A stretch of 64,000 bases of DNA from a plasmid. Both the position numbers and the translations under genes were made by a program. The notes below the pieces were generated by a model. It saw only the letters and a program-made list of their open reading frames with translations. It was not told the origin of the DNA and did not search any database. Location of the stretch: sequence record NZ_MK262712.1; one strand, 5' to 3'. Positions 7,049 to 58,306 of the stretch are shown piece by piece (position 1 is the first letter of the stretch; the number at the start of each line of letters is the position of its first letter).

Positions 7049-7053
7049 AAATT

Positions 7054-39274: not shown

Positions 39275-40453
39275 ATGAAACAAACAGCTGACTTTTTTAT
39301 CTCTACAGAGCGGAACGGGAGGCTAGTCAAAAATTTGCGTGAATTTAGTGACGCAAATCCTGACATTTGCCACAAAGCGGTTAATGGCCAACCGTTTATG
39401 ATCGACCCAAGGGCATTAGTGTTAGTTCCAAACTGGAACTGCCGTGAGATGGGTCTGGGAGAGGCATACTACAAATTACCTAAACCTGCCGAGCATATTC
39501 AGAATCTTAAAAAAGCATTTCTGAATGGGGCAGACATTGACCCTATAACTGTCGTTATTGTTGACGGTAAACCACTGGTTCGACAGGGGAACTGTCGTAC
39601 AAGAGCTGCGCTTTTGGCTCAACAAGAATCAGGTCTCCCCATCCTAGTTAGATTGCGTGAGTTCCAGGGTGACGAGATAGAACAAGAATGGCATTCTCTG
39701 GATGGGGCGAAATCTCTCCCCCTTTGCCCCGTAGGTCGCGGCATTGCCTATAGCAGACTGGTAAATGATGCCGGGATGTCTGTTGAGCAGGTTGCACAAC
39801 GGGAAAACATTTCTGAAATGGCAGTTCGCCAAATCATTTCTCTTGCAACCATCGATGACGAATTAAAGACGTTGATTAGTCAGGATGTTATTTCGTACAC
39901 ACTCTGTCTTGAATTAATTCGTGATCTTGGTGAAAAGGAAGCTCTTGATAAAATTCGGGCCGACCTAAACGCCAAGATAATGGTTATTAATAGTTCCACC
40001 GGGAGTGATACCCTTCCTCTGAATGTTGCCGAAATAATTAAGTCTCATGGTAGTCCTAAGGCTGTCAGGGTCACTAAATCTTCACTGGGAGTGCAACCAA
40101 TTCCTCGTAAACTGGCACAAAATCTCGCAGCCAGTACTAAAGAGGTTTGCAACAGATTACGAGCCTCCCTTCCCTCTTCGTTTGATCTCAATCAGATTGG
40201 ACCCAACGAAAAAATAAATATTGAAGTTGACAGACATCTAATTGAACTTATATTTAATTCAGATGACTCTATTCGTGGCCATGAAGCTAAGCTCGAGCGT
40301 AAAACAACAAAGGGAAAACTTTCTAGTTCTGCCCCATCAGTAACATCAGAGGTAAACTCTAATGCGCTGCCAGCTAATGATCCTATGGAGGAGCCCGCTT
40401 CAGAAAGTCAGGAAAATGAATTTTCGCTATTGAATTTACATTCCGCAGTTTGA
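39275..40453 (+). CDS. ParB/KorB-like DNA-binding protein (ParB N-domain-like plus HTH), 392 aa
   Basis: Degenerate ParB-box-like IVDGKPLVRQGNCRTRAALLA, HTH MSVEQVAQRENISEMAVRQIISLA, acidic C-terminal tail. It is distinct from the SopB-like ParB at 48131. Confidence 0.55.
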   Translation: MKQTADFFISTERNGRLVKNLREFSDANPDICHKAVNGQPFMIDPRALVLVPNWNCREMGLGEAYYKLPKPAEHIQNLKKAFLNGADIDPITVVIVDGKPLVRQGNCRTRAALLAQQESGLPILVRLREFQGDEIEQEWHSLDGAKSLPLCPVGRGIAYSRLVNDAGMSVEQVAQRENISEMAVRQIISLATIDDELKTLISQDVISYTLCLELIRDLGEKEALDKIRADLNAKIMVINSSTGSDTLPLNVAEIIKSHGSPKAVRVTKSSLGVQPIPRKLAQNLAASTKEVCNRLRASLPSSFDLNQIGPNEKINIEVDRHLIELIFNSDDSIRGHEAKLERKTTKGKLSSSAPSVTSEVNSNALPANDPMEEPASESQENEFSLLNLHSAV

Positions 40454-41339: not shown

Positions 41340-41498
41340 ACCTCCGAGTTAAAATGTCACTATCAAAAGATGGTGACATTTCTTTCTTTTGCTCTCTTAT
41401 GTCGGAAACCCAAAAATTTCACATGATACTATTCTCGTATAGACCTATGAGTGTCTTTGAAAAGTAACTTTCGTGGCTTCTCACATAAAAGGTTTCCT

Positions 41499-43937
41499 AT
41501 GCGCTTTTCACTATTCTTAAATCATTTTGCTTTAGCTTTGAGTCTCTCAATAGCCACGAGCATGTTTTCCAACGCCCAGGCCCGGGTATACGAGTACACC
41601 TTTACAGATATCAATGGGGCGCAAAAAAGTGTCCCTGAAAGTGCGCCCTATCTTAATCCACATGGGAATTTTAACGCTCTCCTCATTGGTGGCTTGGACC
41701 AACAAATCCGCTTAACCGTAACTCGCGATGCTGATAACAGTGCTGTTTACAGCACAACAACAAGTATCATCTCTGTTGATGACAGGATTTCTTCCGCTAA
41801 TGGAAATATGTTTTACGGAAAGACTGTCACTATTCCACCTATCAGTGATGGTCGTTACACCATAAAATCTGAGATTTTAGACTCAAAATCGACCGTTGTT
41901 TCAACAACATCCCATCCTTTTATAATAGATACGGTAGGCCCTACGTCTGATAACTTCTCTGTACCATGGATTCCTGGGTACAACATGGTTGTAACGGGAC
42001 CTCGCTGGGAACTTGGCCAAGGTCAAGAATCTGCCATAAATCTTGCAATTAAGAATATCAATGATCTATCTGGTTTTGATAAGGCTATTGTTCAAATAAT
42101 AAAACCAGATGGATCAATACAATCCAGCTATACGATGGCCTACGACGATGGGTCAAGAGCTGCTACAGCCCCTATAACTAAAGGTGGTGGAGCGATAGCT
42201 AAAGCTACATGGATGCCAGTGTCGGATGCCGATGTAGAGTTTCGCTTTCGAGCATTCCTTTATGATAAAGCCGGAAATGTTACTCAAGTCCCCGACCAAA
42301 AATTTGTATTTGATTCTTCTGCAGGTGAATATGAGCTATTTGCAGTTGCAGACCCCAATTCTTCAACTAGTGTTGTTCCCGGCATTTCGTCTGGCTACAT
42401 TAAATATTCAGCAGGGATGACTGTTAATACTAACCCTGTTACTCTTGTGTACAAGATTCCCAAACATAATTATAGGGCTTATAACAAAGCTGGTTTATCC
42501 TTCGGTTCTTTGCTTACTGAAGATAATAGTTATGTATATATAAAACAATCCACCCCAGTTGGTACATCATTTACTATTCATAATGGATACCAATACGGAG
42601 GAGGTAACGCTTCGTATAATGTTAAGTTAAGTTCAATCGCTCCGAAATCCCCATCAATAAAATCCTACTCAGCAAACTTTTCAACAATTGGCGATTTTTC
42701 TGCTGGCACAATGAAATTCACAAACATAGATTTGCCAGGTGAGTATCAAAGTATAACTGTGTTTGTAGACCCTAGGGATTATGTGCAGTCATTTTATAAC
42801 CTTACACAAGGCTACGAAGTTTGTACTATTGAGCCCGGAGAAAGTTCTTGCACTGGTCCTTTTTCATACGCAATAAATAAGGGGAATGGTTACATAGCTC
42901 ATTATTTTATAGTTCGCAATCAAGATAAGACACTTACATCAAATCAATTTGAGATTCGTAGCATCTGGAATACGGATTTAATACCTAAGATCACAGGGTA
43001 TGATTACAAAGAAGAGAATAAATCTGTCCTTGTTTATGTCACACAACCCGGCAATGGCAATTGGCGTGATGTCTTGATGCTTTCTAAGCTAGAGATACTG
43101 GATACAATTTCTAATACGGTTCTTCTGACGGGCACAAAAGCCGCGATGTCTGGAGAGGACTATACTTATGCATTTGATTTATCGGCTATACCTGAAGGGA
43201 AGTATGATTTAACCTTCAGGGCCACTGATACTTTTAACAACAGTTCTCAGTTGCCGTTCAGATCTCTTATTATAGATAACTCCCCTCCTTCAATTTCATT
43301 TTCGTATGAAGGGAAACCACTGTTATCAGAAAGTACAGTCTATGGATTAGAAAACATCTCAGTAGCTGTATCTGATGCTTTAAGTAAGTCCAAGATCTCT
43401 CAAATGGTTCTTCAAGGAGGCCCTGCATCAGATGATGTAGAATTAGGATTTACCCATAACACAGATGGTTCATACACACCACTTTATCCTCGTTTGTTTC
43501 CTTCACTTGATGAAAAAACTGATAAATACACACTTGTAGTTAAAGCTATAGATGATGCAGGTAATGAGTCATCAAAATCTATCCGTTTTGCATATTATCC
43601 TAAGAATCTCATTGTTCTTGATAAACTTAATACCCTTGCGGTTAACAAACCTTTAAACCTTTCTTCAGGTGAACCTCTGGCTGTTCTTAAAGCAAGTCAG
43701 TTACGCCGTAATGATGGTTCCTTAGCAAAAGGCGTACAGACAGCTTTAATTACTGTTAGGGGTGACTCAGCATTCCCAATTAGTGTTAATGGAAACCTTG
43801 TTTCTCCAGGTGAAACGAAAGAAATTCAAATAGATTTAGGTTCTGTAGGAAATGACGTTGTTGTCCCTATATTCCCAGGAGTATCTGGCGTTGTCGGTGC
43901 CTCCGGTTTTATTGTTGAATTCCCTCAACTAAAATAA
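41499..43937 (+). CDS. Exported ~810-aa surface protein, paralogue A of a four-member family
   Basis: Signal peptide ...SMFSNAQA|RVYEYTF. The C-terminal ~200 aa are highly similar to paralogues B-D and end in IVEFPQLK. Palindrome motif at 41458 in the 5' UTR. The ORF track starts at 41451. Confidence 0.65.
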   Translation: MRFSLFLNHFALALSLSIATSMFSNAQARVYEYTFTDINGAQKSVPESAPYLNPHGNFNALLIGGLDQQIRLTVTRDADNSAVYSTTTSIISVDDRISSANGNMFYGKTVTIPPISDGRYTIKSEILDSKSTVVSTTSHPFIIDTVGPTSDNFSVPWIPGYNMVVTGPRWELGQGQESAINLAIKNINDLSGFDKAIVQIIKPDGSIQSSYTMAYDDGSRAATAPITKGGGAIAKATWMPVSDADVEFRFRAFLYDKAGNVTQVPDQKFVFDSSAGEYELFAVADPNSSTSVVPGISSGYIKYSAGMTVNTNPVTLVYKIPKHNYRAYNKAGLSFGSLLTEDNSYVYIKQSTPVGTSFTIHNGYQYGGGNASYNVKLSSIAPKSPSIKSYSANFSTIGDFSAGTMKFTNIDLPGEYQSITVFVDPRDYVQSFYNLTQGYEVCTIEPGESSCTGPFSYAINKGNGYIAHYFIVRNQDKTLTSNQFEIRSIWNTDLIPKITGYDYKEENKSVLVYVTQPGNGNWRDVLMLSKLEILDTISNTVLLTGTKAAMSGEDYTYAFDLSAIPEGKYDLTFRATDTFNNSSQLPFRSLIIDNSPPSISFSYEGKPLLSESTVYGLENISVAVSDALSKSKISQMVLQGGPASDDVELGFTHNTDGSYTPLYPRLFPSLDEKTDKYTLVVKAIDDAGNESSKSIRFAYYPKNLIVLDKLNTLAVNKPLNLSSGEPLAVLKASQLRRNDGSLAKGVQTALITVRGDSAFPISVNGNLVSPGETKEIQIDLGSVGNDVVVPIFPGVSGVVGASGFIVEFPQLK

Positions 43938-43951
43938 TTATTAACCACGCC

Positions 43952-43976
43952 AAAAACCAGCTTCTGGCTGGTTTTT
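43952..43976. terminator. Rho-independent terminator after paralogue A
   Basis: AAAAACCAGC-ttctg-GCTGGTTTTT. Confidence 0.55.
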
Positions 43977-44204
43977 GTATTTTTTTAATAAAGATGGCTG
44001 ATATGCCTAGCCCCCTCCCCTTTTCTTTTACATGACCTGAAAACCCATCTTCTTTTTTTTCACATATCCTCCCCCTTCGATATTTACCAGTCATCCCCTG
44101 AGCTTCCGCAATTACCTGAAGTGATAATATGCTGAACACCTCCCCTCTTCCCGGTGATTTACTTGTGACTTAACTTACTCATGAAGACCTGTATGAATAA
44201 AATC

Positions 44205-46450
44205 ATCCCGTTATTCGCAGCTACATCCCGGAAGCCTCTAAATTCTGATGATGCCCCACATATGCAGTACGATCCCTGTTCGCAGTCGTATATCTTAAGC
44301 CTCAGCGGATTCCTGATGCGCAGCAGCTGAAAACAACCCCCTTGTTCGCAGTCAGATACCTTAAGCCTCATCAGTCTCCTGATGTGCAGCAGTTGAAAAC
44401 AACCCCGTAGTTCGCAGTCGGATACCAGAGTCACAGCAGACTCATAATGTGCAGCTGGTGAAAACAACCCCGTTGTTCGCAGTCGGATACCAGAAGCCAC
44501 AGCAGACACATAATGTGCAGCCGGTGAAAACAATCCCGTTGTTCGCAGTCAGATACCTCCAGCCTCATCAGCCCCCCGATGCGCAGCAAGTAAAACCCCA
44601 TGTTCGCAGACGCATACCTGAAGCCACAGCAGACTCATGATGTGCAGGAGGTGAAGACAACCCCGTTGTTCGCAGGCTGATACCTGAAGCCACAGCAGAC
44701 TCATAATGTGCAGCCGGTGAAAACAACCCCGTTGTTCGCAGTCGGTTACCAGAAGCCACAGCAGACTCATAATGTGCAGCCGGTGAAACAACCCCGTTGT
44801 TCGCAGTCGGATACCTCCAGCCTCATCAGACTCCCGATGCGTAGCAAGTTAACCCCCCTCAGCTTGTCCGCAGTCGGATACCCGAAGCCACCACAGACTC
44901 ATGATGTGCAGCAGGTGAATACAACCCCGTTGTTCGCAGTCGGATACCAGAAGCCACAGAAAACTCATAATTTGCAGCCGGTGAAAACAACCCCGTTGTT
45001 CGCAGTCGGTTACCAGAAACCACAGCAGACTCATAATGTGCAGCCGGTGAAAACAACCCCGTTGTTCGCAGTCGGTTACCAGAAACCACAGCAGACTCAT
45101 AATGTGCAGCCGGTGAAAACAATCCCGTTGTTCGCAGTCAGATACCTCCAGCCTCATCAGCCTCCCGATGCGCAGCAAGTTAAACCCCATGTTCGCAGTC
45201 GGATACCAGAAGCCACAGCAGACTCATTATGTGCAGCTGGTGAATACAACCCCGTTGTTCGCAATCGGATACCAGAAGCCACTGCAGACTCATGATGTAC
45301 AGCATGTGATAACAATTCCCTGTTCGCAGTCAGATACCTCCATCCTCATCAGACCCTTGATGCGCAGCAAGTTAAACCCCCTCAGCTTGTCCTCATTTGG
45401 TTACCTGAAGTCTCTTCAGGCTACCGATGTGTAGCCAGTTAAACCCCTTGTTCGCAGACGCATACCTGAAGCCACAGCAGACTCATAATGTGCAGCCGGT
45501 GAAACAACCCCGTTGTTCGCAGTCGGATACCTCCAGCCTCATTAGACTCCCGATGCATAGCAAGTAAACCCCCCTCAGCTTGTCCGCAGTCGGATACCCG
45601 AAGCCACCACAGACTCATGATGTGCAGCAGGTGAATACAACCCCGTTGTTCGCAGTCGGATACCAGAAGCCACAGCAGACTCATAATGTGCAGCCGTTGA
45701 AAACAACCCCGTTGTTCGCAGGCTGATACCTGAAGCCACAGCAGACTCATAGTGTGCAGCCGGTGAATACAAACCCGTTGTTCGCAGGCTGATACCTGAA
45801 GCCACAGCAGACTCATAGTGTGCAGCCGGTGAAAACAACCCCGTTGTTCGCAGTCGGTTACCAGAAGCCACAGCAGACTCATGATGCGTAGCGAGTTAAA
45901 ACAACCCCCTTGTTCGCCGTCATTAAGTGAAGCCTCTACTGACTGATGAAGTTCAGCCAGTGAATACAACGCCGTTATTCGTAGTCGTTACGTGAAACCT
46001 CAGCGGATGAATGATGTGCAGCCGGTGAAAACAACCTCGTTGTTCGCACTATACTCATGTGAGCCTCTCGTAACTCCCGAAGCCCCATAGATGATTTCAA
46101 CTCCTTTTTATAAAATCGGCTATCTGAATCCTCAGACTATTCCAGATATCTTGCAGATAAAACCATCCCGCTGTCTGTTCGCAGTCGGCTATCTTAAGCC
46201 TTATCAGATTCCTGATGCTTGCAGGTGTAAAAATCCTTTTGTTCGTAATCGGATCCAAGGATTCTCTGGACACCCATGAAGTCCACAGATGAAATGCAAC
46301 TCCGCTGTTCGCAGTCTGGTCATGCGTGCCCATGGAGACTCATGAAGCCCCACAGATGCAATCAAACAACGTTTCACAAAGTCGGTATCAGAATCCACAG
46401 AAGAATCCTAATGCCTTGTAGATGAAAACCCATTGTTCGTAGTCGGCAAT
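44205..46450. repeat. Tandem array of about 34 x 66-bp repeats (candidate centromere/iteron array)
   Basis: Period of exactly 66 (for example 44981 to 45047). The consensus unit GTGAAAACAACCCCGTTGTTCGCAGTCGGATACCAGAAGCCACAGCAGACTCATAATGTGCAGCC contains the inverted repeat AACAAC-ccc-GTTGTT. Two alternating unit subtypes. Edge units are more degenerate. Confidence 0.85.
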
Positions 46451-46553
46451 TCTGGTCTGGAGCCCCAATAAGTTGAACAGCCATGTTTTCGACCTCGAAA
46501 TTTGGGAAGGTATACATCGTTAAACCGGCCTCCAGTAGATAGGTGAAAGAGAA

Positions 46554-46585
46554 GGGCAGGGCAGGGCAGGGCAGGGCAGGGCATG
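46554..46585 (+). repeat. (GGGCA)6 pentanucleotide microsatellite / G-quadruplex-type motif
   Basis: gggcagggcagggcagggcagggcagggca read directly. Confidence 0.8.
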
Positions 46586-46803
46586 GTAAAGGGGTGGCAT
46601 AGTCATTTGCGCCCATGGGTTCTAGCTAAATTTTAAAAATTGAGTATGGATGGCTGGGAAAAAGTCTCAGAATTCACCAAATCTGTGAATTTTGCCTAGT
46701 TAAATTAGATTTCTTTTAATATCAATACCTTGAGAATCATTTGTACATTTCTCGCCCAAAAAAGACTGTGCACGAAATCTCATTTTGAGCGCATGATGTG
46801 ATA

Positions 46804-46827
46804 AAAGTGCATTGTAATGCACTTTTA
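46804..46827. promoter_or_regulatory. 24-bp palindrome about 55 bp upstream of parA (candidate ParA/ParB autoregulatory operator)
   Basis: AAAAGTGCATT-gt-AATGCACTTTT. Confidence 0.4.
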
Positions 46828-46883
46828 CCTTGTAATACGCTCAATCCTCATGAATAATGTGAAGACTAACCTAAGGAGAGATC

Positions 46884-48131
46884 ATGAGCATATTAGATGA
46901 TATTCGTACTATCGGCCTAAAGATGAAAAATGAACAAGCAAGCCTCAAGGAAATAATCTTGGAGTCGAGTCGGGTTGATGTTTCGGATGAACAAGTCGAT
47001 GGCTTAGATCGTCTTATCTATAACCATTGTTTAAATAAAAAAACTCTTTCGGACTTCTTTGGTAAATCAAGAAACACTTTTAGTAGAATTCTTGCTGAAC
47101 TACATGAGAAAAAAGTGATCGGTGAACCTATCTTCCAGAATAAGAGTCACCTGTATACACGTTGGGATGTTCAAAAAATAATGGAAGCGATGGGCACTAT
47201 TCAATATCGTGAAATGTATTTGCCCCGAGTTATTGTTACGGAAAACCATAAAGGTGGGACAGGTAAAAGTACAACAACAGCAACACTTGCTACCGCGGCC
47301 GCTTTGGATCTTAATCTGAATGCAAAAATCTGCGTAATTGATCTTGACCCCCAAGGCTCGTTAGGCAATAACCTTATCCACTCAACTAGTGAAGATAGTG
47401 TTTACCTAACCATAACCGATGTTCTGCTTAGTGAAATTGAAGATAATGACTTTACACAATATATAAAACAGGGATATACGGAAGCACAAATTATTGGTGC
47501 TATGGCATTTTCAACCCATCTCCCTAACATGGATGTTATAACTGCATTCCCGACAGATGATAGATTTACTGATAAATATTGGAGCCTCGATAAGGAGTCA
47601 AGACTCAAACTTCTTACACGTTTTCGTGATGTGGTTATACCTGTATTAAAGGAAAAATATGACCTTATATTTATAGATACTCCGCCACAAGATTCTCCAA
47701 TTATTTGGTCAACAAACGAAGCAGCTGATGCAATACTTGTTCCCATTACACCACGAGAATATGATTTTGCATCAACCACAAACTATATGATTACGATTTC
47801 AGACCGACTTGAGCAGCTTCCATCTAAGGGAACAAATATTAAATGGATTAATGTTCTTGCAGTAAACGTAGATGATAGAAGTCAACATGAGATTCGTACT
47901 TTAAATAAACTAGTAAGAACTGTACGTGATCGGTTCATGACAACAAATATTAAACATTCAGAGGCTTTCGTTGCAGCGGCTGAAAAAGGTCGTACTGTAC
48001 TCGATATTAAAAAATCAGAAGAACTTTGTTCTTCGAAACAATATGATATTGCTGAAATGTCGGTTCAGTCGGTGTATCAACAACTTATCAATGAAATTAA
48101 AAGCTTCTCAGTTAGGGAGGAGGGTAAATAA
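46884..48131 (+). CDS. parA: Type Ia partition ATPase ParA/SopA-like with N-terminal HTH extension
   Basis: Deviant Walker A KGGTGKSTTTATLA about 110 aa from the N-terminus, followed by DLDPQGS. 415 aa is consistent with SopA/P1 ParA. Confidence 0.85.
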   Translation: MSILDDIRTIGLKMKNEQASLKEIILESSRVDVSDEQVDGLDRLIYNHCLNKKTLSDFFGKSRNTFSRILAELHEKKVIGEPIFQNKSHLYTRWDVQKIMEAMGTIQYREMYLPRVIVTENHKGGTGKSTTTATLATAAALDLNLNAKICVIDLDPQGSLGNNLIHSTSEDSVYLTITDVLLSEIEDNDFTQYIKQGYTEAQIIGAMAFSTHLPNMDVITAFPTDDRFTDKYWSLDKESRLKLLTRFRDVVIPVLKEKYDLIFIDTPPQDSPIIWSTNEAADAILVPITPREYDFASTTNYMITISDRLEQLPSKGTNIKWINVLAVNVDDRSQHEIRTLNKLVRTVRDRFMTTNIKHSEAFVAAAEKGRTVLDIKKSEELCSSKQYDIAEMSVQSVYQQLINEIKSFSVREEGK

Positions 48132-49141
48132 TGAGTGATGTTGAACGCGGTACAAGCAAAGACAAATACTTAACCGGAAACAGCAAACGTACATTTGTCG
48201 ATCAAAAAAGCGGACTTCCACCTTTACGTACTTCTCCTACACAGAAGCGACTATTTACTCTAGCAAATGGGCGTAAAGTTGAAGCTCGCTACGTTGTCGT
48301 CCCTGGCTCAGAAGTTGCTAATAAAACGCTCGTTCATGAACTAAACCCACGAAATCAAGAGGCAGTTGACGATCTCTCTACAAGAGAAATTCTTCCTTTA
48401 ATTAAAGAGAATGGGGTTACAACTGAAGCTATTGCCGTCTACCGGGACGGCCAATTTTACCTAATTGAAGGAAGTAGGCGTCGTTTCTGCTGCATAAAAT
48501 GTTCGGTTGATTTACCTTTATGGGCCTTCGATGTAGAGGTTAGCCGTGAAGATGTCGATTGTATTGTTAATGCTGCACAAACGGCAAAACGATTCTCGTA
48601 TCGTGAAGTTGGAATTAAATACCTTGAAATCATGAAGAATAAGGGTTTTAAAACTAATGAGGAACTTGCTTCTTATCTTAATATTGGTATTGAATCGATA
48701 AGAAAGAGAATTCAGGCTGCAAAAATCAGTAAAGAACTTATTAGAATATTCCCAGATAGTGAGGGGATACCTAATACTTATTATAGTAAATTGGCTAGAA
48801 TTGAAAAAACCGCTAATGCTAATAACATTCCTCTGACAGAGCTAACATCTGAAGTAGGGGCGGATGACAATAAAATTACTAACATTAATGATATTGAGGA
48901 AGTTCAGAAGTCAATTTTAGATGGTTTACATTCAGTTCTTAGTATTCTTTGTAATGATGTAAATAAACCGCAAAACTGGACAGTGACTGATATTGCTGCT
49001 TTTGATAATAAGGATACTTACGCTAGGGTAAAAAGAAGCGCCGATGGCCAGAAAGTAAGCTTTGAATTTAAGCGTATTGGTCAATCAACAATAAATGAGA
49101 TTGAACGCTTAATTAAAGTTAGTATTAGCAAAGCAAAATAA
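48131..49141 (+). CDS. parB: Partition protein ParB/SopB-like
   Basis: ATGA-coupled to parA. ParB N-domain motif YLIEGSRRRF, 336 aa. Confidence 0.7.
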   Translation: MSDVERGTSKDKYLTGNSKRTFVDQKSGLPPLRTSPTQKRLFTLANGRKVEARYVVVPGSEVANKTLVHELNPRNQEAVDDLSTREILPLIKENGVTTEAIAVYRDGQFYLIEGSRRRFCCIKCSVDLPLWAFDVEVSREDVDCIVNAAQTAKRFSYREVGIKYLEIMKNKGFKTNEELASYLNIGIESIRKRIQAAKISKELIRIFPDSEGIPNTYYSKLARIEKTANANNIPLTELTSEVGADDNKITNINDIEEVQKSILDGLHSVLSILCNDVNKPQNWTVTDIAAFDNKDTYARVKRSADGQKVSFEFKRIGQSTINEIERLIKVSISKAK

Positions 49142-49325
49142 TTATTTTATTTTTAGTCATGATTCTTTAACAGGGATCATGACTTTCTCATTTATGCAAC
49201 TCACATGTACGACTTTGACACTGGAGGTTCTAACAGCTTTCTGTTCCACTCTTGGCAGAGAAGAATCCCTTTGCTCAAGTCCATCTCTTGGTGCTCCGGC
49301 AGCTTTCAGAAGCATCGTTGACAAA

Positions 49326-49480
49326 AACAACCCCATTGTTCGCAGTCGGATACCTGAAGCCACCGCAGACTCATGATGTACTGCAGGTGAAAACAACCCC
49401 GTTGTTCGCAGTCGGATACCAGAAGCCACGGCAGACTGATTCTGTGCAGCAGATGAATACAACCCCATTGTTCGCAGTCT
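49326..49480. repeat. Mini-array of about 2.5 units of the same 66-bp repeat, downstream of parB
   Basis: TTGTTCGCAGTC cores at 49335, 49401 and 49467 (66-bp spacing), same AACAACCCC-GTTGTT feature. Confidence 0.75.
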
Positions 49481-49862
49481 GTTTCTTGTTGCTCTTGAAA
49501 CCTTCTGGTGCACCGTTATGATTATACAACCAGCCTAACTAGTTAGGGCTGCGCCCAGCCTACTCACGAATAACCCTGACAATGTACCGTCCTAAAGAAC
49601 TCTATAACCCTTATACTGGGGGAGGGGGCAACACCAACTAACGGGTCTGATCATGTCGAAATTCGACTCTGATCATTTCTGGAAAATTTCCAGCAAAGCT
49701 GGTATCTATTGCCCTGATGTGAAAATTAACCTATCTGGTGGGTAGTTAGAAAGTTACTTTTTATTGTTACTTTCTATAGTTAGACGATGAATCTATGCCT
49801 AACGTCCCTAATCAGTATGAACCTGATCAGGGCACATTTTTTGATTAATGCATGTTACTTGG

Positions 49863-52268
49863 TTACTTGATTTGCGGAAATTCGATTATGAAATTGCTTT
49901 CCCCTGTAGAACCGTTTTCTGCTGTGAAAATAGGAACAGTTGAGTTTTCACCGGTTCCAAGGTCTATCTGAATTTCTTTTGTCTCCCCGGGATGAATAAC
50001 GTTCCCAAGGATGTTTATCGCATAATCTGCGTCCTTCCTGACCGTGATGTTTGCCGTTTGTATACCCTTAGCCAGTGAGCCATCGTTACGTCGTAGCTGT
50101 CCCGTCCGCATGACGGCCAACGGTGTGTTGTCACTGGTTTTTAGCGCCTTTACAACACCCAAAGTTTTCAGCTTCTCAAGGGTGACCAGGTTTTTTGGGT
50201 AATAGGCGAACTGAATGCTTTTTTGAGTAGTGTTACCTTTCGCGTCGGTAGCATATGCGGTTAGTGTATATTTGTCCGTGTTTGCATCCAGACTGGGGAA
50301 GAGACGAGGGTAATCAGGTGTATAACTACCGTCCGTATTCTGGTTAAACCCCAAGATAACGCTATCCGACGCTGGTCCTCCTTTAAGTTCAAGTCTGACA
50401 AGGCTGGGTGCTGTTAACTCATCATTTAGCGTTATACTGATGTTCTCAAGCCCGAAAACAGTAGCACCGGGGGATAGCGGCGCATTTTCATATTTAAAAT
50501 TAACAACAGGAGGTGTCTTGTCGTTAATCAGATTTATGAATGGTGATGAAGTTTCATTGTTAAAGCTGTCCTTTGCCAGAAAGCCTAAATTGTATTTACC
50601 TTCGGCCAGTTTGCTGAGATCAAAACTATATGTGTAATCCTCGCCAGATAGAGCTGTTTGGATACCTGACAGTAGTTGGTCCCCGGTATCTGAATCAATC
50701 AGAGCAGCAGATTTGAGTTGCAACAAATCGCGGAATTTTCCGCGCCCTGGTTGCGTCACAAATAAGAGTACAGTTTTGTTTTCCTCTTGGTAACTGTATC
50801 CGGTTATTTTGGGTAAAAGATCAGTGTTCCAGTGATGTCTCTTTTCTACGGTGACTGATGAAAGGGTTTTATCCATATCAGTCAATTTGAAGGCATAAGT
50901 TGTAATACCATTACCTGATTTTGGAATAGACCATGATACCGCACCGGTACACTCAGTCTCACCAGCTGGTATCTGACATATCTCAGTGTTTCCACTCATC
51001 GCCCTCTGACCATAATTTCGTGGAGACGCAGTGATCCTTACAGAACTGAATTTCACGGGCAGATCTATGGTATCCCAAAGGTAGCTACTCGAATTCATTT
51101 CTCCTTTTTTATCTGAAGTTAACCATACTTCAGGTGCTGCCGGGCTGGCCGGAGCCTCACTTCCTAAATTGATATTATAGGAGAGTGAGCCTCCACCCCA
51201 TTGATATCCGTTATGGATGACGTAAGCTACCTTATAGGCCGTTTTCGCGGATACATAACTGTATCCATTCGCTTCGGAAATAATTGTGCCAAATTTCAAA
51301 CCAGCTTTACTGTATTCCCTTCGATTATTCGATGGAACCCTGTACACGAGTGTTAAAGGGTTTTGGTTAACGGTCATTCCCGGCTTATATGCTATGTAAC
51401 CTTCACTAAATCCCGGAACTACGCTTGTTTTAGAAGTCGGGTCATAAACAGCAAATAAAGTATATTCACCAAGATCTGAGTCAAATATGAACTTCTGATC
51501 CGGCAAAACTTTACGGTTTCCCGCTTTATCATAGAGCGTCACACGGAAACGATATTCCACATCAGCGTTTGATACAGGCATCCATGATGACCGACTCATA
51601 TTCCCTTTTGTCCACGGTATTGAAAGGGATGCTGATCCACTGTCATAAACCATATCTGTAGTTGAAAAAACAGTATCATCAGGTTTTATCACCTGAATAG
51701 TCGCTTTATCAAAACCGGTGGCAGATTTGACGTTTTTCACATTCAGGTACAGCTTTGCTTCAGCCCCGAGGCCCAGTTCCCAACGCTCACCTGTTAAGAC
51801 CATATCATATCCGGGGTTTTGGTCCACGCTCAGGTTATCTGACGAAGGCCCTACAGTATCAATAATAAAATTGTGAGACGTGCTGTCGATAACAGTGTTT
51901 TGAGTATTCAGGATATCTGACGTTATTACATAACTTCCATCACTCAGTGGTGGCAATGTCAGCGTTTTACCATAAAATTCTTCACCAGTTGATGCCTTTA
52001 TACGGTCATTGACCGTCACGCTCTCAGTAGTAAAGCTATATACTCCAACATTGTCTTTCTTTACTGTTACCTGAATTTTTCTGTCGAGTCCCGATATTAT
52101 TCTTACCTGAATTTTTTCATTGGTATTTAGGATACCTGCTTCCGCACTGACTGATTTATCCGTTCCATAGACATCCTTGAATACATATTCATACACACGA
52201 GCATATGAGGGGAGTGAAAAAGCGGAGAGGGCAATTAGTATTAAAGTAGTCTGTAAATTAATTTTCAT
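49863..52268 (-). CDS. Exported 801-aa surface protein, paralogue B
   Basis: Signal peptide MKINLQTTLILIALSAFSLPSYA|RVYEY. C-terminus IIEFPQIK. Palindrome at 52313 in the 5' UTR. Confidence 0.7.
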   Translation of the reverse strand: MKINLQTTLILIALSAFSLPSYARVYEYVFKDVYGTDKSVSAEAGILNTNEKIQVRIISGLDRKIQVTVKKDNVGVYSFTTESVTVNDRIKASTGEEFYGKTLTLPPLSDGSYVITSDILNTQNTVIDSTSHNFIIDTVGPSSDNLSVDQNPGYDMVLTGERWELGLGAEAKLYLNVKNVKSATGFDKATIQVIKPDDTVFSTTDMVYDSGSASLSIPWTKGNMSRSSWMPVSNADVEYRFRVTLYDKAGNRKVLPDQKFIFDSDLGEYTLFAVYDPTSKTSVVPGFSEGYIAYKPGMTVNQNPLTLVYRVPSNNRREYSKAGLKFGTIISEANGYSYVSAKTAYKVAYVIHNGYQWGGGSLSYNINLGSEAPASPAAPEVWLTSDKKGEMNSSSYLWDTIDLPVKFSSVRITASPRNYGQRAMSGNTEICQIPAGETECTGAVSWSIPKSGNGITTYAFKLTDMDKTLSSVTVEKRHHWNTDLLPKITGYSYQEENKTVLLFVTQPGRGKFRDLLQLKSAALIDSDTGDQLLSGIQTALSGEDYTYSFDLSKLAEGKYNLGFLAKDSFNNETSSPFINLINDKTPPVVNFKYENAPLSPGATVFGLENISITLNDELTAPSLVRLELKGGPASDSVILGFNQNTDGSYTPDYPRLFPSLDANTDKYTLTAYATDAKGNTTQKSIQFAYYPKNLVTLEKLKTLGVVKALKTSDNTPLAVMRTGQLRRNDGSLAKGIQTANITVRKDADYAINILGNVIHPGETKEIQIDLGTGENSTVPIFTAENGSTGESNFIIEFPQIK

Positions 52269-52406
52269 ATCAAATTATTAATCCAAAAAATTCGTGAAGT
52301 TTATGCCTTGGAGAAAGTTACTTTTTTCTGATTGCATGCTTTTAACAACACCATTTGGTACGAAACGCCACCAGCCCCACATAGCAGAGGCGGTGGCCGT
52401 CGATAG

Positions 52407-54812
52407 TTAGTTAAGTTGTGGGAACTCGATGATGAAGTTGCTTTGACCCGTAGACCCGTTGATAGCCGGAAAAATCGGAACCGTAGAGTTTTCACCAGTT
52501 CCGAGGTCAAGCTGTATTTCTTTAGTTTCCCCGGGATGGATCACCGTTCCCAGAATGTTGATGGCATACTCAGCGTCGCTTCTGACCGTGATATTTGCCG
52601 TCTGCATACCCTGGGCAAGAGAGCCATCGTTCCTTCTCAACTGGCCGGTACGCATGACTGCCAGAGGTGTGTTGTCACTGGTTTTGAGTGCTTTAACCAC
52701 GCCCAGTGTTTTCAGTTTCTCCAGGGTAACGAGATTTTTAGGGAAGTAGGCGAACTGAATACTTTTTTGGGACGTATTACCTTTAGCATCTGTGGCATAT
52801 GCAGTGAGAGTGTATTTATCTGTCGACGTATCCAGAGTAGGAAACAGCCGTGGGTAATCAGGTGTGTAGCTACCATCAACATTCTGGTTGAAACCAAGGA
52901 CTACGCTATCAGATGCAGGCCCCCCTCGTAGTTCCAGGCGGAGAAGAGTAGGTTTAGTCAGCTCATCGTTTAGTTTAATGGATATATTCTCCAGACCATA
53001 GACCGTGTTGCCGGAGGTGAGCGGGGCATTGTCGTAGTTAAAGCTGATCTCAGGGGGAGTCATATCATGCACTAACGTGATGAATGGAGAAGATGTTTCA
53101 TTTTCGAAGGTATCTTTTGCCAGAAAGTTTAAGTCGTATCTTCCTTCAGCCAACTTACTTAAGTCAAACGCATAAGTATAATCTTCACCAGAAAGCGCTA
53201 TTTTGGCTCCATTCAGCACCTGCATACCTGAATTAGCATCAATCAGTTCAGCGGACTTAAGCTGAAGTTGATCTCTGAAGGTACCATTACCGGGTTGGGT
53301 AACAAATAAAAGTACTTTTTTCTTATCTTCCTGATAGTCATATCCCTTTATCCTCGGTAGAAGGTTTGTGTTCCAGTAGTTCCTCCTTTCCTGATTAATT
53401 GATGAAAGTGTCTTGTCCTCATTATACATTTTAAAAGAATATGTCACGCCTCCATTGCCACTTTTAGCAATTGACCACGGTACCGGCCCGCTGCACTCAG
53501 TCTCACCTGGTTGGATTTGACAGATTTCCAGGTTACCTGTAAATGCTCTCTGGATATAATTTCTCGCAGAAGCACGGATCCTCGCTGAAATAAATTTCAC
53601 CGGTAGATCACTTGTTTTCCATAAATAGTTAAAAGAATTAATTTCACCTTTTGTGTCCGTCGTGAGCCAAACGCTACTAAGCATTTCCGGTCCGACAGGC
53701 GTGTCGGGACCCAGTTTAAGGTTATAGTTTGCAGTAGCGCCGCCCCATTGGTACCCGTTATGTATATCGTACCTGTTGTTATATGCTGTTGTTGCCGCCA
53801 CATAGGCGTAACCGTTAGCTTCTGAAATGATAGAGCCAAAACTTAAACCAGCTTTGTTGTATTTCCTTACATTGTTGATGGGGATACGATAGATTAAGGT
53901 AATCGGGTTTTGATTAACTGTCATACCCGCTTTATAAGCTATATAACCCGAAGTGAACCCTGGAACAACGCTTGTTTGCGCTTCGGGGTCCCGTATAGCA
54001 ATAAGAGTGTATTCACCCAGTTGGTCATCAAATACAAATTTCTGTTCCGGTAATACTTTTCGGGAGCCTGCTTTGTCAAAGAGTGTAACCCGGAAACGAT
54101 ACTCTACATCAGCATTTGATGAAGGCATCCAGGAGGCCTTTTTCCGGTTCCCTAAAGTCCATGCAGCAGACAGGGAGGAAGACCCGCTATCATAGTCCAT
54201 AGCAGTAATGGAATAGACGCTATTATCGGGATTAATAACCTGTAATGTAGCTTTATCGAAACCAGCGACTGCTTTAACGTTGTTAACGTTCACATATAGT
54301 TTTTGGTCGGCTCCAAGGCCCAGTTCCCACCTTTCTCCCTGGGTGACCATTTCATACCCCGGTTTCTGTAAAATGCTCAAATCGTCCGCTGTAGGGCCCA
54401 CACTATCTATGGTGAAATCCTGTGTGGTGGAGTCGACCATAGCACCCTGTGTGTTAAGTATTTCAGAGATAACCTGATACGGTCCATCACTCAGGGGAGG
54501 AAGCGTGATGATTTTCCCGTAGAACTCTTCACCTGTTGATGCCTTAATTCGATCACTTACCTTAATGCTATCGGTTGTCGTGCTGTAAACCTCCGTTCCT
54601 GACTTCCGGACAGATACGTGTACTTTGCGATCTAGGCCGGAAATCAGGCTCAACTGAATTTTTTCGTTAGTGTTAAGAATGCCGGTTTCCGCACTGACTG
54701 ATTTCTCCGCACCGTAGATATCCTTAATGGTGTACTCATAGACCCGTGAATGCGATGAAAAGGACATCGTCGCGAGGATTATCGTTGTCAGCAGTTTTAT
54801 CTTGGTATTCAT
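52407..54812 (-). CDS. Exported 801-aa surface protein, paralogue C
   Basis: Signal peptide ...SFSSHS|RVYEY. C-terminus IIEFPQLN. Palindrome at 54849 in the 5' UTR. Confidence 0.7.
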   Translation of the reverse strand: MNTKIKLLTTIILATMSFSSHSRVYEYTIKDIYGAEKSVSAETGILNTNEKIQLSLISGLDRKVHVSVRKSGTEVYSTTTDSIKVSDRIKASTGEEFYGKIITLPPLSDGPYQVISEILNTQGAMVDSTTQDFTIDSVGPTADDLSILQKPGYEMVTQGERWELGLGADQKLYVNVNNVKAVAGFDKATLQVINPDNSVYSITAMDYDSGSSSLSAAWTLGNRKKASWMPSSNADVEYRFRVTLFDKAGSRKVLPEQKFVFDDQLGEYTLIAIRDPEAQTSVVPGFTSGYIAYKAGMTVNQNPITLIYRIPINNVRKYNKAGLSFGSIISEANGYAYVAATTAYNNRYDIHNGYQWGGATANYNLKLGPDTPVGPEMLSSVWLTTDTKGEINSFNYLWKTSDLPVKFISARIRASARNYIQRAFTGNLEICQIQPGETECSGPVPWSIAKSGNGGVTYSFKMYNEDKTLSSINQERRNYWNTNLLPRIKGYDYQEDKKKVLLFVTQPGNGTFRDQLQLKSAELIDANSGMQVLNGAKIALSGEDYTYAFDLSKLAEGRYDLNFLAKDTFENETSSPFITLVHDMTPPEISFNYDNAPLTSGNTVYGLENISIKLNDELTKPTLLRLELRGGPASDSVVLGFNQNVDGSYTPDYPRLFPTLDTSTDKYTLTAYATDAKGNTSQKSIQFAYFPKNLVTLEKLKTLGVVKALKTSDNTPLAVMRTGQLRRNDGSLAQGMQTANITVRSDAEYAINILGTVIHPGETKEIQLDLGTGENSTVPIFPAINGSTGQSNFIIEFPQLN

Positions 54813-54947
54813 TTCAGATCATTCCCAGCAGGCTTGTAATCAGAGTTGAGAAAGTAACTTTTCTCTCTTCCTGGCCGTCATATTCGGCGTTGTCGTGTTT
54901 ATCCAAAAATTACCGGCCCAACAGCAGGGACCCGTAATCGTGAGTCG

Positions 54948-57353
54948 CTATTTAATTTGCGGAAACTCAATGATGAAATCGCTTTGCCCGGTAGCGCCGT
55001 TTGTTGCCGGGAAAATTGGGACCGTTGTGTTAACACCAGCGCCGAGGTCTATCTGGATGTCTTTGGTTTCGCCCGGCTGAATGACAGTACCCAGTATGTT
55101 GATCGCATAATTAGCGTCAGTCCTGAGCGTGATGTTGGCAGTTTGTACACCCTGAACCAAGGAGCCATCGTTCCGCCTAAACTGCCCGGTACGCATGACG
55201 GCCAGCGGAGTGTTGTCGCTGGTTTTCAGCGCCTTCACCACACCCAGCGTTTTGAGTTTTTCCAGGGTCACAAGATTTTTCGGATAATAGGCGAACTGAA
55301 TGCTTTTCTGAGTGGAGTTCCCTTTGGTATCCGTTGCATACGCCGTCAGGGTATATTTATCGGTATTTTCGACAAGGGTAGGGAACAGACGTGGATAATC
55401 TGGCGTATAGGAGCCATCGGCATTCTGGTTGAAACCAAGAATCACGCTATCAGATGCGGGGCCACCTTTCAGCTCAAGGCGTTCGAGAACAGGCTTTGTC
55501 AGCGCGTCATTCAGGCTAATCGCGATGTTCTCCAGCCCATACACGGTAGAACCGGAAGCAAGCGGGGCATTTTCATAATTAAATATGACGTCTGGGGGGG
55601 TCATATCGTTCACCAGCGTGATGAACGGCGATGACGATTCATTATCGAAGGTGTCTTTGGCAAGGAAGGAAAGGTTATATTTGCCTTCCGGGAGAGCTCC
55701 CAAATCAAACGTGTAGGTGTAATCATCACCAGCAATCGCTGTATTGGTACCGGTTAACACCTGGACATTTGAATCCGCATTAATTAGAACCGCAGACTTG
55801 AGCTGCAATTTGTACCGTAAACTGCCGTTCCCCGGTAGATTCACAAATAGCAGAACCTTTTTCTTGTCTTCCTGATAATCATAACCAGTAATTCTGGGCA
55901 ACTGGTCAGCATTCCAGTATTGCCGCCTTTCAGCATATTGTGAGAAAAGGGTGCCATCTGAGTTGGTCATCTTGAAGAAAAAACCCATATGGCCGTTACC
56001 ACTTTTTTGAATATTCCCAACAATTTTCCCTTCACACTCCAGCTCGCCGACAGGAATGTTACATAAGAAACCTCCGGTATTAGACATAGCCTTTTGAATG
56101 TAATTTCGTGCCGACGCTTTCACGCGGGCAGTAAGAAATGTCACCGGGAGATCGGATGTTTTCCAGAGGAAATCATATGAGCTTACCGAGCTTTTCTTGT
56201 CCGAGGTAATCCACACGTCAGGAGTAGTCGGGCTTACCGGCGCATCTGCACCCATTTTAATATTGTAGGTTACACTGGCCCCCCCCCACTGATAACCGTT
56301 ATGGATAACAGAGAGCGTCTGGTAAGGGGTCGTGACCGACACATAGCTGTAGCCGTTAGCCTCAGAAATTATGTTCCCGAAGGCCAGCCCACCTTTTCTG
56401 TACTCCCTGCGGTTCGTAGAAGGGACACGGTAGACAAAAGTAATGGGATTCAGATTGACCGTCATCCCCGATTTATATTCAACATACCCTTTACTGAATC
56501 CGGGTATAACACTGGTTTCAGCTGTAGGGTCATACACCGCGACTAGCGTGTATTCGCCTAAATCCGAGTCAAAGAGGAACTTCTGATCCGGCAGGACTTT
56601 TCGGGTACCTGCCTTGTCGTATAGCGTGACACGAAAGCGATATTCTGTATCCGCATTGGACACCGGCATCCAGTCGGCTTTAACCGCGCTCCCCTTAGTC
56701 CACGGAACAGAAAGCGATGCAGAACCGCTGTCGTAAACCATGTCCATTTTGGAATAGACGGTATTATCGGGATTTAAGATCTGGATAGTAGCTTTATCAA
56801 AACCGGCCGTCGCTTTCACATTTTTGACGGTGACATATAGTTTTGCTTCTGCCCCCAACCCCAGTTCCCAGAGATTTCCGGTAAGCACCATGTCATATCC
56901 CGGACGCTGGTCAATCCTCATGTTATCGGCTGTGGGGCCAGACGTATCAATCAGGAATGATTGAGTTGTCGAATCAATAAGGGCATCCTGGGTATTCAAT
57001 ATTTCCGAGGTAATGGTATACAGCCCTTCACTTAACGGTGGCATGGTTATAACTTTCCCGTAAAACTCTTCATCTGATGATGATTTGATGCGATCGGCAA
57101 CTTTCACGCTTTCTGTCGTCGTGCTGTAGACATTCGCGTCGCCTTTTTTCACCGTCACACGGATTTTCCTGTCCAGCCCTGAAATCAGGCTAAGCTGGAT
57201 TTTCTCCGTGGTGTTCAGCTTCGCTGAATCGGCGCTAACGGATTTCTCCACACCGTAGATATCTTTTATTGTGTACTCATAAACACGGGAATGGCCCGGC
57301 AATGAAAGGGTGCCGAGGATTAATGCCGCCAGAAGTTTGAGTTTGAATTTCAT
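54948..57353 (-). CDS. Exported 801-aa surface protein, paralogue D
   Basis: Signal peptide ...SLPGHS|RVYEY. C-terminus IIEFPQIK. Palindrome at 57431 upstream. Confidence 0.7.
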   Translation of the reverse strand: MKFKLKLLAALILGTLSLPGHSRVYEYTIKDIYGVEKSVSADSAKLNTTEKIQLSLISGLDRKIRVTVKKGDANVYSTTTESVKVADRIKSSSDEEFYGKVITMPPLSEGLYTITSEILNTQDALIDSTTQSFLIDTSGPTADNMRIDQRPGYDMVLTGNLWELGLGAEAKLYVTVKNVKATAGFDKATIQILNPDNTVYSKMDMVYDSGSASLSVPWTKGSAVKADWMPVSNADTEYRFRVTLYDKAGTRKVLPDQKFLFDSDLGEYTLVAVYDPTAETSVIPGFSKGYVEYKSGMTVNLNPITFVYRVPSTNRREYRKGGLAFGNIISEANGYSYVSVTTPYQTLSVIHNGYQWGGASVTYNIKMGADAPVSPTTPDVWITSDKKSSVSSYDFLWKTSDLPVTFLTARVKASARNYIQKAMSNTGGFLCNIPVGELECEGKIVGNIQKSGNGHMGFFFKMTNSDGTLFSQYAERRQYWNADQLPRITGYDYQEDKKKVLLFVNLPGNGSLRYKLQLKSAVLINADSNVQVLTGTNTAIAGDDYTYTFDLGALPEGKYNLSFLAKDTFDNESSSPFITLVNDMTPPDVIFNYENAPLASGSTVYGLENIAISLNDALTKPVLERLELKGGPASDSVILGFNQNADGSYTPDYPRLFPTLVENTDKYTLTAYATDTKGNSTQKSIQFAYYPKNLVTLEKLKTLGVVKALKTSDNTPLAVMRTGQFRRNDGSLVQGVQTANITLRTDANYAINILGTVIQPGETKDIQIDLGAGVNTTVPIFPATNGATGQSDFIIEFPQIK

Positions 57354-57499
57354 ATCAGTACCAGTCTAAATCATGGTTAAAAGGTCGCATTGTGAGTCGC
57401 TCTTAACCACTGACGGAGCGATACATGCCAAAAAAGTTACTTTCCTTCTCCGTTGCAAAAACAACGCATGTTTATGATTCTGCTCACCTGGCCTACGGC

Positions 57500-58177
57500 T
57501 TATTTCACCTGCTCGAGAACAGCACGCCTGCTCTTCTGGGCTGGCGAATGTAATGAGCGATTCCAGACCAGCGTTTTTTCGTAAATCGTGATGAAACCAA
57601 GACGAATTAGCTCCTGCTTAATCCGCTCGTTCAGCAATGAGCAGGATTTTTGCCCTGTCACATTTGAAAGGTAATTTTGTAAGCCCATTGGCGTGGCCGG
57701 GAGCGATTTAGGGGAGGATGCGCAGGAAAGCTTCAGTCTGTTAATCCAGTACCCCATGTCATGCTCTTTGGCTTTCATCACTTTCTTTGTTGAAGCCGTG
57801 TCTTTAACCGGCTGCGGAGCGGGCAGGGCTGGAGAGAACCTTGTACAGCTGATCCCTGCTGCTTTAAGACGGGCAATAATGCCGTCATAGCCCTTGTCAC
57901 GGGAGATAACAGAGAAGTGTGACGTATCCCCGGACAATGCGGTCAGCTGGCCGAGTTCCAGAACCAGATGGAAATCAACATTGTTTTTGGATACCTCAGT
58001 CGCCGGAATAATGCATACAGAAATTGCAGAGCTCAGGGACGTAACGGGAATTTTAATGTTTTCCTGTTTAGCGCCCGTGAAGAAAAGCACTTTGTCAAAG
58101 TCATGAAGGGAAACCCCCTCAAGGCTTCCGATATTTTCATAATCAATCAGGGCAATTCTGGTTTTGGAACTGAGCAT
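57500..58177 (-). CDS. NYN/PIN-like (LabA-like) nuclease-domain protein, 225 aa
   Basis: N-terminal RIALIDYENIGS...VLFFTGAKQ pattern typical of NYN/LabA PIN-like domains. Basic C-terminal half. Confidence 0.4.
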   Translation of the reverse strand: MLSSKTRIALIDYENIGSLEGVSLHDFDKVLFFTGAKQENIKIPVTSLSSAISVCIIPATEVSKNNVDFHLVLELGQLTALSGDTSHFSVISRDKGYDGIIARLKAAGISCTRFSPALPAPQPVKDTASTKKVMKAKEHDMGYWINRLKLSCASSPKSLPATPMGLQNYLSNVTGQKSCSLLNERIKQELIRLGFITIYEKTLVWNRSLHSPAQKSRRAVLEQVK

Positions 58178-58306
58178 TATTCTCTCCCGAAAAATAGGTT
58201 GGACTAAATATCAACTTAATCACCACCAGCAGCCCAAAAGTAACTTTTGGGCCTATGTACACTCCCGCCACCCGGTAAAAGTGACTTTTTACGGCGCACA
58301 TACTGA

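Follow-up and report, generated by a model that had tools for sequence, protein, structure and literature searches.

Four Ig-like paralogues around the partition locus of an IncHI1B Klebsiella resistance plasmid, probable members of a conjugation-accessory family, and a palindrome recurring across the IncHI backbone

The window analyzed here is a stretch of 64,000 nucleotides from a plasmid (sequence record NZ_MK262712.1), in which positions 41499 to 57353 hold four paralogous genes, hereafter A, B, C and D. All four open reading frames (ORFs) are labeled 'Ig-like domain-containing protein' in RefSeq, and a first-pass annotation, made from the letters alone, had described their products as a family of exported proteins of about 800 amino acids (aa), a description borne out by ORFs of 801-812 aa with predicted Sec-type signal peptides. 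The evidence assembled below indicates that they are probably four long-diverged paralogues of the DUF4165-Big conjugation-accessory family of MOBH/MPF_F plasmids. The 17-kb stretch is 100% identical to the conjugative plasmid NZ_CP055011.1 (Klebsiella quasipneumoniae, 274 kb), typed as IncFIB/IncHI1B with relaxase MOBH and mating-pair formation type MPF_F, and the locus was matched in 568 plasmid records, 531 of them from Klebsiella. The genes and features of the locus are the following.

41499..43937, plus strand: paralogue A, 812 aa; DUF4165, Big_3_2, three unassigned beta-sandwich domains, Big_3_3 and a C-terminal domain
49863..52268, minus strand: paralogue B, 801 aa; architecture as in A; the copy used for the structure model
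52407..54812, minus strand: paralogue C, 801 aa; architecture as in A
54948..57353, minus strand: paralogue D, 801 aa; architecture as in A; orthologues the most conserved of the four (97-98%)
44277-46048: array of 27 repeats of 66 bp, upstream of parA
46884-48131: parA, between A and B
48131-49141: parB, coding for the partition ParB, between A and B
49324-49479: 2.4 further copies of the 66-bp repeat, downstream of parB

The genes sit in the plasmid backbone, with tra on one side and par on the other. B, C and D lie in tandem on the minus strand and A, on the plus strand, is inverted relative to them, so that, as had been noted, A and B-D bracket the partition genes and the repeat array. The 66-bp repeats flanking parA and parB are presumably the centromere; because the array varies, megablast matches to many related plasmids are split. 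A is counted here from the ATG at 41499, a longer version of its ORF beginning at a GTG at 41451. The third-position GC content of the four genes climbs stepwise from A (0.30) through B (0.39) and C (0.455) to D (0.537), which possibly marks differing histories or differing expression levels.

Each protein begins with a leader of 22-28 aa (28 aa in A) carrying one to three lysine or arginine residues, a hydrophobic core and small residues at -3 and -1 (A-x-A, S-x-A, S-x-S and G-x-S), and the conserved RVYEY follows directly. Cleavage just before RVYEY(T/V)(F/I)KD had been proposed for all four; the RVYEY part is conserved, but A reads RVYEYTFTD. Two cysteines in the mature part are invariant across the family. 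A Pfam search placed DUF4165 (residues ~22-140), Big_3_2 (140-265) and Big_3_3 (544-700) in all four proteins, with E-values of 1e-13 to 1e-47, thereby confirming the suspected Big domains, and found in none of them an anchor domain (beta-barrel, LPXTG motif or type I secretion system (T1SS) signal). A-D contain no catalytic domain, and they lack the hallmarks of classical Big-domain adhesins, namely an N-terminal beta-barrel/LysM anchor and a C-terminal T1SS signal with RTX repeats. Modeled with AlphaFold2, B (mean predicted local distance difference test score, pLDDT, of 82.5) is all-beta, with a disordered leader and about seven consecutive beta-sandwich domains, and resembles only strings of immunoglobulin (Ig), FN3 and MG domains, including those of SiiE (2yn3) and of an RTX adhesin extender (6xi1). 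The likeness to adhesin Ig domains would also suit proteins that benefit the host cell, attaching it to surfaces or host tissue or building biofilms, and that travel as backbone cargo with no role in DNA transfer; the lack of any beta-barrel, LPXTG or T1SS anchor speaks against such a role, to which we return below.

Identity among B, C and D is 70-72%, somewhat above the 65-70% first estimated, and A is, as originally observed, more divergent (50-53%). A conserved C-terminal module is likewise evident, with identity in the last ~150 alignment columns of 84-96% among B, C and D and of 60-72% for A. Between paralogues, synonymous differences have reached saturation in every 60-codon window, with a proportion (pS) of 0.6-1.0, and the proportion of nonsynonymous differences (pN) drops from 0.15-0.38 to 0.02-0.11 in the last ~130 codons, the last ~130 residues being the most constrained part of the protein and the middle (residues ~355-490) the most divergent. 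Concerted evolution of the C-terminus is ruled out by a pS of 0.6-0.8 there, as elsewhere in the gene, and because synonymous sites are saturated in this region too, its conservation is ascribed to purifying selection on old duplicates and not to gene conversion.

The inverted and tandem layout, together with a middle region more divergent than the C-terminus, had suggested a family of variable surface adhesins, in which diversifying selection would act on exposed regions reshuffled by gene conversion and by recombination between A and B-D, the latter also inverting the par segment. As saturated synonymous sites make the dN/dS of paralogues uninformative, selection was judged on orthologues by the Nei-Gojobori method. 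Whole-gene dN/dS (omega) is 0.06-0.13 over dS values of up to ~2 (A, 0.07-0.08; B, 0.06-0.13). In the mature region omega is 0.02-0.15 where dS is measurable, one near-identical segment (dS 0.013) being uninformative, and the signal peptide is the only region of relaxed constraint (0.12-0.92 where measurable), conservation resuming at RVYEY. In no 40-codon window, the unit on which selection was tested, does pN exceed pS, and the most relaxed window, columns 381-440 of A, has an omega that we estimate at ~0.3 from a pN of 0.32 and a pS of 0.63. Positive selection was therefore rejected in favor of purifying selection, and the elevated dN/dS expected for the N-terminal and middle regions of a diversifying surface antigen did not materialize. 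Orthologue identity is 77-100% for A, 87-99% for B, 89-98% for C and 97-98% for D. The orthogroups are clean in five further plasmids, with paralogue identities of ~50% and ~70% in every plasmid, and the four main public clusters are similar in size, with 1074-1785 member sequences. Each paralogue already had its distinct sequence when the plasmid lineages diverged and has kept it.

Recombination between A and B-D fares no better. At the nucleotide level A matches B, C and D only in patches (63-68% identity), with identical runs of at most 11-15 bp, and the longest such run among B, C and D, at 19-23 bp, is close to chance expectation for ~70% identity. Runs this short offer no realistic RecA substrate for inversion. 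In the six plasmids examined (the match to the window and five further ones, diverged lineages included) the orientation is the same, and the five further plasmids keep the gene order PIN/NYN - D - C - B - parB - parA - repeats - A - yuiA. No A/B-D chimera was resolved in 27 public clusters comprising thousands of sequences, the very divergent cluster P0023 alone being ambiguous. Inversion or gene conversion between A and B-D, the first of which had been predicted to flip par, was rejected for these six plasmids and 27 clusters on nucleotide identity, saturated pS, clean orthogroups and constant orientation. The chimeric genes that had been foreseen do occur, but between adjacent tandem copies. 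D is missing in the plasmid stretches L005 and L008, where the remaining upstream copy combines a D-type upstream region and a D-like signal peptide with a mature part 100% identical to C. In stretch L006 it is C that is missing, and the par-side copy has a C-type upstream region, the C signal peptide and ~60 C-like codons before continuing as B. The coordinates of these copies are as follows.

L005, 14474-16879: D/C chimera
L008, 9457-11862: D/C chimera
L006, 12001-14403: C/B chimera

The same D/C and C/B chimeras recur as public clusters P0015 and P0004. They are best read as the loss of one tandem unit by unequal crossover near the 5' ends, the only recombination between paralogues seen. 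Nucleotide identity near the tandem 5' ends, where the crossover occurred, is low today. B also shows a mosaic, as the window copy (49863-52268) and its counterpart in L008 (12001-14406) differ by a dS of ~0 in the first ~400 codons and of 0.2-0.4 thereafter; this has the signature of allelic homologous exchange between plasmid lineages within one orthologue. Chimeric 5' ends and the mosaic of B could be cited in support of shuffling, but the D/C and C/B chimeras point to rare copy-loss events and some redundancy, not to a mechanism of variation or to programmed variation. Short identical runs, synonymous saturation along the whole length, constant paralogue identities and orientation, and low omega have largely refuted the variable-adhesin idea, which we now consider very improbable.

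The same losses, together with an A that is split into two ORFs in L006, raise another alternative, in which one copy suffices and the others are redundant leftovers of old duplications drifting to loss. The IncHI1 plasmid R27, which carries one family copy cut by IS30 and another frameshifted, can be adduced in its favor. Against it, an omega of 0.06-0.13 over dS values of up to ~2 in all four genes implies long-term maintenance of each, the four main clusters have similar member counts, and the distinct sequence of each paralogue predates the split of the plasmid lineages. We consider drift to loss improbable.

The first-pass annotation had also pointed to the Big-domain surface protein RSP of IncHI plasmids and a smaller second one as possible relatives, and this link is confirmed by a protein of identical architecture, RSP2, and by an RSP orthologue in the window.

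18062..22303, minus strand: RSP orthologue, 1413 aa; signal peptide and Big_3_3; 51% identity over 1407 aa to R27 RSP

Its context (traN/trhU/trhW/trhF) is syntenic with R27. RSP2 (R0055 of R27) is a protein of 794 aa with DUF4165 at residues 23-142, Big at 143-254 and Big_3 at 537-693 (PMC8730810), and the domain boundaries of A-D are those published for it. A-D align with R27 RSP2 over their full length (~770 aligned residues) at 29-34% identity, rising to 44-63% in the last ~100 columns. They thus have the architecture and full-length homology of RSP2-type proteins, on a MOBH/MPF_F backbone with an RSP orthologue. Strict orthology to RSP2 is not found in the identity matrix or in a neighbor-joining tree, which at 25-40% identity is a rough distance tree. 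In it A-D form a clade of their own, sister to the R27 paralogue cut by IS30 and to copies 1 and 2 of the IncHI2 plasmid R478, and RSP2 clusters with P0028, R478 copy 3 and P0029/30. On this rough tree RSP2 and A-D appear to belong to two different ancient subfamilies, the second of which (subfamily II) holds A-D.

Family members are present in several copies in IncHI1, IncHI2 and IncHI1B alike, and the four-copy set that had been taken for a distinctive feature is therefore a variation on the IncHI norm. R27 has RSP2 intact, a second full paralogue truncated at the 3' end by IS30 (48925-51084), to which A-D are 34-37% identical over the full length, and a third copy reduced to a frameshifted, degenerate fragment. 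R478 has three full-length members (9846-12302, 16576-18996 and 24174-26299 of the fetched stretch L009), two of them inverted around repHI2; copy 1 is 81% identical to the IS30-cut copy of R27, and copy 3, which clusters with RSP2 in the tree, is 38% identical to it. These three members contradict a published account in which IncHI2 has no RSP2 (PMC8730810). With B as query, tblastn hit just four places in each IncHI1B record with the full set and three in those short of a copy, and in R478 the same search picks up even the 25%-identical copy 3; for this reason IncHI1B plasmids seem to have no strict RSP2 orthologue. Given the rough tree, A-D would thus be a lineage-specific expansion of a never-studied subfamily whose R27 member is broken.

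The two studied DUF4165-Big members are R27 RSP2 and the N-terminal 800 aa of ALG87338.1, a secreted protein of 1,843 aa with DUF4165, Big_3_2 and Big_3_3, encoded on the IncA/C plasmid pKAZ3 and needed for conjugation at 25 C. Searched with a family profile, 1.84 billion representative proteins yielded 441 cluster representatives at E<=1e-30, many of ~800 aa aligned end to end and a second class of ~1820-1870 aa with the module at the N-terminus. Plasmids with a single hit, presumed to be of IncA/C type, show ~30% identity. Among sampled plasmid hits, 2734 of the 3051 matching plasmids are conjugative, mostly with IncHI and IncA/C-like replicons. This distribution, the location of the genes in the backbone between tra and par, and the effect of both tested family members on conjugation all run counter to the idea that A-D merely attach the host cell to surfaces, whereas the R27 member of subfamily II, disrupted without loss of conjugation, would agree with it. 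Further lineages of the family, represented by clusters P0023, P0008-P0010, P0013, P0014, P0016 and P0017, occur on other plasmids of Klebsiella and Raoultella. P0023 is only ~50-65% identical to A, and a group with ~72% identity to B, C and D resembles D in the N-terminal half and C/B in the remainder; these lineages are either extra paralogue types or old mosaics.

The gaps to the preceding gene measure 159 bp for A, 138 bp for B, 135 bp for C and 146 bp for D, and hairpins were located as follows.

41352..41381, plus strand: terminator-like hairpin after yuiA; 13-bp stem and T run; conserved in L006-L008
43951..43977, plus strand: terminator-like hairpin after A; 12-bp stem and T run
54915..54932, minus strand: terminator-like hairpin after D, upstream of C
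52363..52397, minus strand: imperfect GC-rich hairpin (GCCACC...GGTGGC) followed by GTTT, after C and upstream of B; read by eye, as its loop exceeds the limit of the scanner

The hairpin after yuiA sets A apart from the upstream operon, and on this sequence evidence each of the four genes is a separate unit between terminator-like hairpins. No sigma-70 consensus promoter was predicted in the four upstream gaps, and Rfam returned nothing credible in 40500-58500. Each gap does contain one copy of AAAGTNACTTT, 27-79 nt before the ATG.

41461..41471: palindrome AAAGTAACTTT, 27 nt before the ATG of A; this site is conserved in L006, L007 and L008
52314..52324: palindrome, 45 nt before the ATG of B; this site is lost in the diverged plasmid L007
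54851..54861: palindrome, 38 nt before the ATG of C
57433..57443: palindrome, 79 nt before the ATG of D

One palindrome per gene had been recognized at the outset as part of a 5' untranslated region proper to each. The count per gap stands, but the motif is plasmid-wide and not specific to these genes. Its extended consensus is a perfect palindrome of 13 bp, RAAAGTNACTTTY, of which the window holds 33 perfect copies (between 2816 and 60375) against 0.13 expected, and only 8 copies with one mismatch against 4.3 expected. Although ~80% of the window is coding, 18 of the 33 copies are intergenic. No -10 element stands at a fixed spacing from the palindrome when 18 sites are anchored on it. The motif is equally enriched in R27, with 15 copies in a 50-kb stretch and 6 in one of 26 kb (a single site belongs to both), in R478, with 7 in 26 kb, and in the diverged Klebsiella plasmid L007, with 9 in 26 kb. 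Sites inside genes occupy the same place in the window and in R27 despite ~50% protein identity, as these positions, in nucleotides from the gene start, illustrate.

rsp, first site: +962 here, +965 in R27
rsp, second site: +3203 here, +3209 in R27
traN/trhN: +439 here, +445 in R27
trhU: +13 here, +19 in R27
trhI-like helicase: +1202 here, +1199 in R27

The possibility that the palindrome is a by-product of K-V-T-F/L-type coding was ruled out, since the annotated genes contain five KVT[FL] peptides and spell every one of them with the exact motif, against ~10% predicted from codon usage; this argues for selection of the motif at the DNA level. The palindrome, common to A-D, tra genes and rsp, looks like the mark of an undescribed IncHI-wide regulon, as either an operator or an activator site. 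No description of it was found in the searchable literature, and searches there for Ig-like proteins of IncHI1B/pNDM-MAR and for IncHI with KorB yielded nothing relevant. The densest cluster of copies (36523-39158) lies directly upstream of the following gene.

39275..40453, plus strand: ParB-family 'DNA-binding protein', 392 aa; TIGR00180 at E 7e-8, Spo0J 6sdk at E 0.02

Its product, separate from the partition ParB and 33% identical to an R27 'DNA-binding protein' (45191-46348), is a candidate binder of the palindrome and KorB-like regulator, by analogy with parS sites and the KorB operators of RK2. A palindrome that A-D have in common with tra genes and rsp is again hard to square with a pure host-attachment function, which the predicted transcription of A-D apart from the tra operons, judged from the hairpins, would on the other hand permit. 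Weighing these points with those given above, we regard proteins that serve only the host as unlikely.

Placing A-D in the DUF4165-Big conjugation-accessory family, the reading that we prefer, draws on what has been reported for RSP2, which was detected in the secretome, requires TrhC (the ATPase of the type IV secretion system) and partly RSP for its export, and binds flagella and conjugative pili; a deletion mutant conjugates ~100-fold less in liquid. By homology, A-D would be exported by Sec and then released or displayed in dependence on the plasmid type IV secretion system. They would associate with the RSP orthologue, a likely partner by analogy with the RSP-RSP2 interaction in R27, and with the conjugative pilus, and would assist the formation of mating pairs, above all in liquid and at low temperature. 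As elongated rods of Ig domains at the pilus or cell surface they would favor mating. The pattern of conservation suggests that the C-terminal module may be a common docking or export interface and that the divergent middle and N-terminal domains may give each paralogue its own ligand. Because each gene bears one copy of the backbone-wide palindrome, A-D are probably co-regulated with the transfer backbone through RAAAGTNACTTTY. Changes in copy number are limited to the occasional unequal crossover of neighboring copies in the tandem array. The window also encodes a TrhF-like homologue of signal peptidase I (17400-17924, minus strand), directly downstream of the RSP orthologue, and a disulfide isomerase (30396-31247) within the tra operon; as A-D have cleavable leaders and two conserved cysteines, the plasmid peptidase or isomerase could act on these exported Ig-like proteins.

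Several points weigh against this assignment. The experimental data belong to RSP2 and to the IncA/C homologue, not to A-D or their subfamily, and in the rough tree A-D cluster with the IS30-disrupted paralogue of R27 and with R478 copies 1 and 2 instead of RSP2. R27 conjugates with its copy broken, and subfamily II may therefore not be needed for transfer. Klebsiella is non-motile, so that the flagellum-binding part of RSP2 function cannot apply in the main host. The absence of D in L005 and L008, and of C in L006 along with the split of A, suggests partial redundancy, copies having been lost or broken in some lineages. The signal peptides were called by rules, without a dedicated predictor, and the role given to the C-terminal module is conjecture. 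A bolder proposal, which we offer as speculative and hold to be unlikely, would make A-D mating adhesins of differing specificity, with the C-terminus docking on RSP or the pilus and the middle domains recognizing different recipient surfaces; they would be switched on jointly with the whole IncHI transfer backbone via RAAAGTNACTTTY, bound by the ParB/KorB-like protein of 39275-40453, in an undescribed global regulon of IncHI1, IncHI2 and IncHI1B.

In Klebsiella, genes for carbapenemases and hypervirulence are found on IncHI1B plasmids of the pNDM-MAR type and on hybrids of these. In IncHI1, RSP and RSP2 are exposed and required for efficient transfer, and both have been proposed as targets for antibodies or nanobodies (PMC6764697, PMC8730810, PMC11268884). 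Blocking the transfer of Klebsiella plasmids in the same way would have to reckon with four RSP2-family proteins, all of a never-tested subfamily, and an RSP orthologue. The published view of IncHI2 as devoid of RSP2 relatives is corrected by the three members in R478. Proteins of this kind have been described before, and they form a large family; what is new, within the literature searched, is the presence of four conserved paralogues on IncHI1B plasmids of Klebsiella, their membership in an untested subfamily and the palindrome that they share with the whole backbone. The palindrome regulon is the more surprising lead than the proteins, and a strongly selected palindrome spread over the backbone makes the regulation of IncHI transfer genes directly testable.

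Elsewhere in the window, an IS200/IS605 element (5774-9225) with two TnpB genes and tnpA lies in an insertion that is GC-rich (~0.50) in contrast to the surrounding AT-rich backbone, and a Phd/RelE toxin-antitoxin pair (5098-5620) adjoins this insertion.

Among the closest known systems is RSP2 of R27, which resembles A-D in length (~800 aa), in its succession of DUF4165, Big and Big_3, in its hydrophobic N-terminal leader and in its location, alongside RSP, on an IncHI backbone of the MOBH/MPF_F type. R27 has one functional copy of the RSP2 type, whereas the Klebsiella plasmid has four, and the flagellum and motility role of RSP2 has no counterpart in a non-motile host. RSP itself (R0009 of R27) is a secreted Big_3 protein from the same kind of plasmid, whose Big_3_3 region is 25-30% identical to that of A-D, but at 1413-1432 aa and without DUF4165 or Big_3_2 it represents a distinct family. 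ALG87338.1 is over twice as long as A-D, is present in single copy and has a C-terminal extension that A-D lack, and hits of its type, of ~1820-1870 aa, contain the whole 800-aa module of A-D at their N-terminus. The nearest relatives outside the Klebsiella plasmids are the IS30-cut copy of R27 and R478 copies 1 and 2, at 34-40% identity. The R27 cut copy and the R478 copies have the same palindrome upstream, as in A-D, and R27 and R478 arrange their copies in inverted pairs around a maintenance locus (repHI2 in R478), echoing A and B-D around par; these plasmids have two or three copies and no tandem triple, against the four of A-D. For the palindrome, the comparison is with the KorB O_B operators of the IncP plasmid RK2 and with parS. 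As in those systems, many copies are spread across the backbone, in promoter regions and inside genes, a ParB-family gene adjoins the densest cluster, and conservation is all-or-none, perfect copies far outnumbering those with one mismatch (33 versus 8). The sequence is a different one, the binder here is a candidate, and the ParB-like protein has GNCR in place of the GERR motif of ParB. In the mating-adhesin proposal, finally, A-D would do a job comparable to that of the pairings between TraN and outer membrane proteins in F-like plasmids, here for capsulated, non-motile Klebsiella.

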